64,000 bases of DNA from assembly GCF_056712565.1 (NCBI RefSeq), contig NZ_CM160072.1; one strand, 5' to 3'. The first letter of the stretch is position 1. Each line of letters opens with the position of its first letter. A program made the position numbers and the translations under genes. Of this stretch, positions 43,363 to 44,564 are shown one piece after another. The notes under the pieces were generated by a model that was not told the DNA's origin, searched no databases, and worked only from the letters and a program-made list of their open reading frames with translations.

Positions 43363-43424
43363 AAGGTGGCTCCTACCCGTGATCCCTTGACGGAACATTC
43401 AAGCAAAAGCCTGGTTCCGCCGAT

Positions 43425-44564
43425 TTATCGCTGCGGCAAATAACGCAGCGGGTTTACGGATTTCCCCTTGTAACGAATTTCAAAATGCAAGCGTGTTGAA
43501 CTGGTTCCGGTGCTACCCATGGTTGCTATTTTTTGCCCCGCCTTCACTTCTTGTTGTTCCCGGACCAGCATTGTGTCGTTATGGGCGTAGGCACTCAGGT
43601 AATCATCATTATGTTTGATGATAATCAGATTACCGTAGCCGCGCAGCGCGTTACCGGCATAAACAACGCGGCCATCTGCGGTCGCGATAATTGCCTGTCC
43701 TTTGCTGCCTGCGATATCAATCCCCTTGTTGCCCCCCTCAGAAGCGCCAAAGGTTTCGATCACTTTGCCCTCAGTCGGCCAGCGCCAGGTGGAGATAGGC
43801 GTACTGGTTGATGTACTGCTGACAGTCGGCTCGGTTGTGCTTGCTGTTGGTACCGTTACAGGCGCTGTGACCGTGGTCGCAGTTGGCTTGTTGTTCGGCA
43901 ACATTTTGTTAGCACTCTGTTCACCCGAAGACTCAGAATACGTAATTGTCGGTTGCGACGCAACAGCAACGGTGGAATTTTGTGCAGGCTTGATCACAAC
44001 TCCTTGCTCTGCTGCGTCGGCCTGGGTAATGGCATTTCCGCCTGTGATTGGCGTACCGGAAGCATTACCCACCTGTAAGGTCTGACCGACGTTCAGCGCG
44101 TATGGTGCCTGAATATTGTTGCGCTGAGCAAGGTCACGGAAATCGTTGCCAGTAATCCAGGCGATATAGAAAAGCGTGTCGCCTTTTTTCACGGTGTATG
44201 TACTGCCGCTATAACTGCCTTTCGGAATGTTCCCATACTGACGGTTGTAGACGATTCGTCCGTTTTCCATCTGTACCGGCTGCTGAGCTACTGGCTGCAC
44301 TGGCTGGATTTGCGGTTGTTGAGTAGCCTGAATTTGTGGCTGCTGTACCGGCTGAATTTGCGGTTGCTGTGCTGTAGACGTCGTTCCCATTTTCGGCGGC
44401 GGCGTAATCAACATACCAGAATTGGTATTTGCAGGCGCATTGCCATTAACGGAGCTGACCGGTGCCGGTGGATTTGAAGTGTCAGAACAGCCTGCCAGCC
44501 ATAGCGAAACCAGTGACAATGCCGCAATGCGGCGAACGGTGAATTTTGGGCTTCCCGCGCTCAT
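43425..44564 (-). CDS. nlpD: Murein hydrolase activator lipoprotein NlpD (LysM + M23 domain)
   Basis: 379-aa ORF; lipobox LAGC, Gln/Pro-rich repeats, LysM and C-terminal M23 peptidase-like domain. Confidence 0.94.
43935..43963 (-). promoter_or_regulatory. Major rpoS promoter located inside the nlpD coding sequence
   Basis: Minus strand TTGCGT-N17-TATTCT within nlpD, ~567 nt upstream of the rpoS ATG, consistent with the known long rpoS leader. Confidence 0.75.

Follow-up and report, generated by a model that had tools for sequence, protein, structure and literature searches.

RpoS controls the general stress response. Lange et al. reportedly described, in 1995, the K-12 promoter PrpoS (rpoSp) together with a 567-nt rpoS 5′ untranslated region. 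In current accounts, rpoS is served by a low-level bicistronic promoter upstream of nlpD and by the main, intragenic PrpoS within nlpD (PMC10948607). The locus described here, on the minus strand of a 64-kb stretch of DNA (the window), raises the question of whether a promoter-like motif inside nlpD is PrpoS, where its transcript would begin, and how much of nlpD is regulatory as well as coding. An earlier note, made from the sequence alone, had proposed that the motif is the rpoS promoter, that it gives rpoS a long leader targeted by Hfq-dependent small RNAs (sRNAs), and that it makes the 3′ half of nlpD dual-function.

Organisation of the locus

The open reading frame (ORF) list places truD, surE/umpG, pcm (44704-45330), nlpD and rpoS in this order on the minus strand, and from umpG through rpoS the RefSeq annotation of K-12 MG1655 contains the same genes with the same annotation. 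nlpD is host to the promoter and to 505 nt of the rpoS leader (coordinates of all features are given in Table 1). Two antisense ORFs, 43533-43811(+) and 43702-44085(+), were set aside as probably mechanical ORFs opposite a conserved gene. Sigma-70 regions 1.2, 2, 3 and 4 were detected in RpoS using Pfam. The rpoS allele is intact, with codon 33 (window 43266) being GAG (Glu33), as opposed to CAG (Gln33) in MG1655, and the remaining seven rpoS differences from MG1655 are all synonymous.

A strong terminator-like hairpin (42323-42356), consisting of 15 pairs followed by a T-run, lies right behind the rpoS stop, and a naRNA4/REP-like Rfam match is found at 42157-42229, below threshold (24.2 bits; gathering score 59.5). 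Where K-12 has ygbN, the DNA downstream of rpoS carries an MBL-fold hydrolase gene (40373-41416, minus strand) and a flavodoxin-family gene (41641-42192, plus strand). The full 2-kb stretch 3′ of rpoS is present in 1039 of 5426 complete E. coli genomes, including ATCC 11775, NU14 and MS7163, and this island presumably resembles the polymorphic rpoS-mutS region.

Table 1. Features of the nlpD-rpoS locus. Negative positions, and +23, are relative to the rpoS start codon; +21 to +178 is counted from 43929.
Feature	Window position	Strand	Relative position or residues	Details and source
nlpD CDS	43425-44564	-		379 codons + stop; ORF list, RefSeq annotation of the K-12 locus
NlpD LysM domain			residues 123-165	Pfam, 2.7e-12
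NlpD Peptidase_M23 (LytM) domain			residues 279-372	Pfam, 4.6e-33
-35 hexamer TTGCGT	43958-43963	-		across nlpD codons V201 (GTT), A202 (GCG) and S203 (TCG)
-10 hexamer TATTCT	43935-43940	-		exactly codons Y209 (TAT) and S210 (TCT); 17-nt spacer to -35
Predicted transcription start	43927-43929	-	-565 (43927) to -567 (43929)	
rpoS 5′ leader	43363-43929	-		567 nt: 505 nt of nlpD coding sequence and stop, plus 62-nt spacer
C-rich, G-poor early leader	43752-43909	-	+21 to +178	C/G up to 1.87 in 78-nt windows
(AAN)4 Hfq motif AACAACAAGAAG	43547-43558	-	-196 to -185	motif search, published Hfq distal-face binding motif
A6 tract, second upstream A-rich Hfq site	43529-43534	-	-172 to -167	motif search
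DsrA/RprA/ArcZ shared pairing region	43455-43497	-	-135 to -93	DsrA core -119 to -97 (43481-43459)
nlpD-rpoS spacer hairpin	43389-43421	-	-59 to -27	minimum free energy (MFE) fold
Inhibitory stem, downstream arm	43340-43380	-	-18 to +23	contains Shine-Dalgarno AGGAG (43374-43370) and rpoS AUG
rpoS ATG	43362-43360	-		ORF list
rpoS CDS	42370-43362	-		330 codons + stop, E33 allele; ORF list, RefSeq

The promoter motif within nlpD

The motif put forward in the earlier note (TTGCGT-N17-TATTCT; exact string TTGCGTCGCAACCGACAATTACGTATTCT) was found at 43963-43935 on the minus strand, inside the nlpD ORF. It occurs once in the window, compared with 0.01 occurrences expected by chance, and lies on the same strand as rpoS, 573-601 nt upstream of its ATG. 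The string comprises nlpD codons 201-210, which, given the domain boundaries of NlpD, places it in the low-complexity linker that separates LysM from Peptidase_M23.

As a sigma-70 promoter, the motif is a weak match to consensus, with three of six positions shared with TTGACA and four of six with TATAAT (7/12), and it is absent from the list returned by a generic sigma-70 promoter scan of the window at a threshold of at least 9/12. Sites scoring at least 7/12 number 24 on the nlpD sense strand alone and 4603 in the whole window, so the motif taken by itself is no better than chance. We judge the promoter to be real because of its identity to the mapped K-12 promoter, its position, and the conservation of its synonymous sites across species.

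Upstream of the -35 hexamer there is a TGTGA half-site (43998-43994, minus strand), and a CRP-like site here would be centred at about -61.5 from 43929. Its second half-site is poor, and the codons concerned show no synonymous-site conservation across species. A CRP site in PrpoS has been mentioned in the literature, where control by ArcA, CRP and ppGpp, as well as sigma-70 dependence, are reported for PrpoS (PMC10948607).

Identity with K-12 and the predicted transcription start

Of the 5420 E. coli genomes that match the 701-nt stretch 43300-44000, 5417 do so at 99% identity or more, and many, O157:H7 strains and ATCC 11775 among them, at 100%. Compared with MG1655, the stretch from -640 to +60 has three differences (-294, -183 and -162), all at synonymous third positions of nlpD, with 100% identity from -640 to -295. 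There are no differences in the promoter, whose hexamers and spacer are the same as those of the K-12 promoter, in the sRNA site, or in the 62-nt nlpD-rpoS spacer; the change at -162 falls 5 nt downstream of the A6 tract. The comparison with the K-12 rpoS leader suggested in the earlier note therefore returns a match except for the three synonymous changes. The locus has in common with K-12 its genes, the position of the promoter in nlpD, the -35, spacer and -10 sequences, and an identical sRNA site, Hfq motifs, spacer hairpin and ribosome-binding site (RBS) in the leader. It differs from MG1655 in these three positions, in having E33 rather than Q33, and in the island downstream of rpoS.

Across the whole of nlpD there are 16 differences from MG1655, all synonymous, of which 13 lie in codons 1-174 and three in codons 303-379, with codons 175-302 free of any. 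The gap at codons 175-302 may reflect recombination history rather than selection, because -540 to -280 is unconstrained between species.

In K-12, the rpoS start site is reported 567 nt upstream of the start codon (PMC10948607; PMC10957080; PMC6582626). Table S1 of Mendoza-Vargas et al. (2009) lists a 454-sequenced rpoS 5′ end at -565 (frequency 2), described as 'Known sigma 70', with rpoSp as the associated promoter and a promoter distance of -2. This end was given the sigma-70 -10 box attaCGTATTCTgagt by PATSER, which is the same -10 box as here. Going by this literature and by the sequence identity with K-12, transcription in the present strain would start at 43929-43927; the two published 5′ ends lie 2 nt apart, on U or C, which leaves the exact +1 uncertain. 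The leader length of about 567 nt in the earlier note agrees with this, whereas the span it gave, 43363-43928, is 566 nt; a leader of 567 nt corresponds to 43363-43929.

The same Table S1 contains a second rpoS 5′ end at -173 ('rpoSp4'), with a sigma-38 -10 box, ggtcGCTATTTTTTg (window 43525-43535). This box, which overlaps the A6 Hfq site, reads in the direction opposite to rpoS and represents either an antisense start or a table artefact. At the rpoSp4 box, the window has GCA as opposed to GCG.

Conservation of the promoter across Enterobacterales

Using RpoS as the query and one genome per species, we collected 80 loci, and an nlpD-length ORF precedes rpoS throughout the gamma-proteobacteria scanned. 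The 47 Enterobacterales loci were examined for the promoter. GTTG followed by CGTATTCTG, with the exact 17-nt spacer, is found at the aligned position in all but a few of these, and this GTTG-N-CGTATTCTG pattern extends from Escherichia to Yersinia, Serratia, Pectobacterium, Hafnia and Edwardsiella. The GTTG of the -35 element is present in almost all loci (ATTG in one), and the -35 hexamer occurs as TTGCGT, TTGCTT, TTGCAC or TTGATT. The -10 hexamer is TATTCT in 43 of the 47, with the exceptions being TACTCT (Tatumella), TATCCT (Photorhabdus, Providencia) and TATGCT (Arsenophonus).

In a codon alignment of 38 Enterobacterales nlpD genes, we counted the species using a given codon among those having the corresponding residue. 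Codon use is fixed or nearly so for V201 (GTT, 36/36), I207 (ATT, 25/25), T208 (ACG, 26/26), Y209 (TAT, 37/38), S210 (TCT, 35/35, from six possible Ser codons) and G214 (GGT, 32/33), and is variable for S203 (TCG, 6/29), P205 (CCG, 10/26) and S213 (TCG, 9/34). The mean synonymous codon identity across the gene is 0.56. Over the promoter, the 9-codon running mean of 0.81 is below the 95% permutation maximum of 0.84, because the spacer codons vary; the signal resides in the individual hexamer codons. Species with Ala in place of Thr at residue 208 use GCG and so retain the third-position G, and those with Pro or Ala in place of Ser at residue 210 still have an NCT codon. Positions 1, 2 and 6 of the -10 hexamer (T, A, T) are constant and variation is confined to positions 3-4, which argues for selection at the nucleotide level with the pattern of a -10 element.

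V201, Y209 and S210 are also conserved as amino acids within the otherwise variable NlpD linker. Since the flanking linker residues vary, these three are plausibly imposed by the promoter. As in other intragenic promoters, the hexamers double as codons (GTT GCG TCG ... TAT TCT) under purifying selection at synonymous sites; compared with intragenic promoters generally, PrpoS is set in a low-complexity inter-domain linker, and the residues it encodes are among the few that are conserved there.

Outside the Enterobacterales, four Photobacterium nlpD genes contain GTTG-N-TACTCT with a 17-nt spacer, 455-488 nt before the stop. The motif is in the same frame as the E. coli promoter (V[A/D]...EYS) and is a possible PrpoS homologue in Vibrionaceae. 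The same frame and the similar distance from the stop suggest that the promoter is possibly older than the Enterobacterales/Vibrionaceae split. When the other Vibrio, Aeromonas and Alteromonas-group loci were searched for this pattern, none had a counterpart.

Hfq motifs and predicted sRNA pairing in the leader

The leader contains both upstream A-rich elements, (AAN)4 and A6, that are described as the Hfq sites needed for DsrA and RprA pairing (PMC3458560). The shared pairing region falls within the final codons of the M23 domain in nlpD and provides the upstream arm of the inhibitory stem. In an ungapped scan, DsrA nt 10-32 are complementary to -119 to -97, a 23-nt match scoring 38, whereas shuffled DsrA reached at most 34. 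When 32-nt windows along the leader were evaluated, the best DsrA site was at -127 to -96 (-33.0 kcal/mol), with the next best at -21.6. These two procedures replaced unconstrained RNAduplex runs of whole sRNAs against the whole leader, which gave meaningless long-range duplexes.

On the shared segment, the duplex energies are -31.8 kcal/mol for DsrA and, with the search confined to -135 to -85, -32.4 for RprA and -20.7 for ArcZ. In the unbiased energy scan of the leader, the documented site ranks second best for RprA and lies outside the top three for ArcZ. The DsrA match is clear and unique, and the assignment of the RprA and ArcZ sites follows the literature, as the unbiased scan does not single the site out. 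In K-12, RIL-seq recovered DsrA, RprA and ArcZ chimeras at the nlpD-overlapping UTR (PMC12262471). dsrA, rprA, arcZ and hfq are all absent from the 64-kb window; among the 5426 complete E. coli genomes, dsrA is present in 5338, rprA in 5423 and arcZ in 5416. An Rfam scan of 41500-46000 (E ≤ 1) returned no family covering the leader.

The predicted inhibitory stem

In MFE folds of 168-nt and 180-nt segments, -130 to -94 pairs with -18 to +23, such that the AUG is paired and the Shine-Dalgarno sequence is bracketed. The 180-nt segment has an MFE of -54.3 kcal/mol (z = -2.23 relative to shuffles), and a 597-nt fold shows no significant excess of structure over shuffles (z = -1.09). We projected the single-sequence MFE structure onto an alignment of 30 Enterobacterales species, and the helices of the stem arms are 88-97% paired, compared with 36-45% after the pairing partners are shifted by 1-3 columns; the projected structure derives from one of the aligned sequences. 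Both arms are nearly invariant, so there is no covariation support for the stem, and for the same reason RNAalifold on the 30 species does not recover the classical inhibitory stem as a consensus. The hairpin in the nlpD-rpoS spacer shows compensatory changes in six of its eight stem pairs across the 30 species.

The nlpD-rpoS spacer is usually 50-62 nt long, and reaches 103-126 nt in seven Enterobacteriaceae, including Pseudocitrobacter, Phytobacter, Siccibacter and Kluyvera. The longer spacers (L005, L009, L010, L011, L018, L023 and L047, at about 2874-3000 in these loci) put about 45-65 nt extra between the stem arms.

The pairing site, the Hfq motifs and the predicted stem are all present, in line with the proposal of the earlier note that the leader is an Hfq-dependent target of DsrA, RprA and ArcZ. 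In 'anti-antisense' activation by Hfq-dependent sRNAs, an upstream segment sequesters the RBS and sRNA pairing frees it. The stem and the complementarity are both found here, and there is no difference to report, the rpoS leader being the archetype itself.

Alternative explanations and the extent of constraint in nlpD

One alternative is that the hexamers are a chance, inactive sigma-70-like match, with rpoS transcribed solely as part of an nlpD-rpoS transcript from promoters upstream of nlpD. Such a transcript does exist (PMC10948607), and the low consensus score, the 24 equal or better sites on the nlpD sense strand and the omission of the site by the generic scan are what a chance match would look like. 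It is, however, extremely improbable, since the sequence is identical to a K-12 promoter whose 5′ end is mapped and whose -10 box is assigned, and since about 35 species share the same synonymous choices in the hexamer codons but not in the spacer codons next to them. A second alternative explains the conserved codons 201 and 209-210 by a need of the protein for a V...YS linker motif, promoter activity then being incidental. The persistence of V201, Y209 and S210 in a variable linker is compatible with this, as is the recurrence of V[A/D]...EYS in the same frame in the four Photobacterium genes. A protein motif leaves unexplained why one of six Ser codons and one of four Val codons is used without exception, why the third-position G of codon 208 is kept with either Thr or Ala, and why NCT outlasts the replacement of Ser by Pro or Ala; the changes that do occur fit a -10 element, with hexamer positions 1, 2 and 6 fixed and 3-4 free. 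We consider a purely protein-level cause very unlikely, and retain the reading of the motif as PrpoS.

The earlier note also described the 3′ half of nlpD as both coding and regulatory. Physically this is correct, as the entire stretch of about 505 coding nt lies in the leader, which spans 44% of nlpD. Synonymous codon identity between species from -540 to -280, however, is 0.37-0.53, resembling the 0.30-0.57 seen upstream of the promoter (-1150 to -640). It is elevated over the promoter and initial transcribed region (-602 to -537, 0.71-0.81), and rises again from -275 onward, with values of 0.7-0.96 over -275 to -65 and 0.96 at the sRNA site (-122 to -96; permutation p < 0.0002 for the maximum 9-codon window). 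Because -540 to -280 varies at the background rate of the gene, describing the 3′ half as dual-function is an overstatement. Judged by codon identity, nucleotide-level constraint is detectable in two islands only, one comprising the promoter and the first ~50 transcribed bases, and the other the last ~210 nt of nlpD with its peak at the sRNA site.

A constraint on composition would be invisible to codon identity, and the high C and low G content of the early leader is what a Rho loading site would be expected to show. The literature reports that transcription of the rpoS leader is subject to Rho-dependent termination (PMC6582626), and the stretch from +21 to +178 is plausibly a candidate Rho loading region. 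Even so, dual coding and regulatory constraint over the whole half is unlikely. We lean towards a reading in which the promoter dictates a few conserved linker residues (V201, Y209, S210 and G214) and may predate the Enterobacterales/Vibrionaceae split, with regulation at the sequence level limited to the islands -602 to -537 and -275 to -65, and the ~250 nt between them acting as a freely evolving C-rich spacer. A literature search that was far from exhaustive turned up no earlier report of the two-island pattern or of promoter-encoded linker residues, and these would be a modest addition to the description of the locus.

Assignment and significance

Considering the sequence features, the identity with K-12, the complementarity to the sRNAs, the predicted stem, and the nucleotide-level purifying selection that acts on the promoter and on the final ~210 nt of nlpD, we are confident, to near certainty, that 43963-43935(-) is PrpoS: a sigma-70-type promoter within the nlpD frame, in the LysM-M23 linker, whose transcript would start at about 43929-43927 and carry a stem-inhibited leader activated through Hfq and sRNAs. 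The element is the archetypal, already known E. coli PrpoS and rpoS leader, present, intact and ordinary. The earlier note had likewise called the element known, and the arrangement is indeed the textbook E. coli nlpD-rpoS one.

With the start site, sigma factor, Hfq/sRNA activation and Rho effect taken from the K-12 literature, the locus would operate as follows. RNA polymerase would initiate at the predicted start to give a monocistronic rpoS mRNA with an untranslated leader of ~567 nt, the first 505 nt of which (nlpD codons 212-379 and the stop) would be read as RNA rather than protein. Pairing of -130 to -94 with -18 to +23 would bury the rpoS AUG and bracket the Shine-Dalgarno sequence, so basal rpoS translation is expected to be low. 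Hfq bound at the upstream (AAN)4 and A6 elements would aid the pairing of DsrA, RprA or ArcZ with -135 to -93, which would open the stem and activate translation and, according to the literature, would also counter Rho-dependent termination in the leader.

In evolution experiments, according to one study, mutations and IS insertions hit the nlpD-rpoS operon repeatedly. In the clinical isolate E. coli JNEC-KY178 (NZ_AP045174.1), an IS1A lies in the 62-nt nlpD-rpoS spacer (locus L085, 877-1715), and comes between the rpoS ribosome-binding site and the arm of the leader that binds the sRNAs.

The current understanding of the locus is unchanged by these findings. PrpoS and its leader are where most transcriptional and sRNA-based regulation of rpoS converges, and a mutation or insertion that hits the 62-nt spacer or the 3′ portion of nlpD can have its effect through rpoS and not through NlpD. 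The comparative result narrows which synonymous sites of nlpD should not be counted as neutral.
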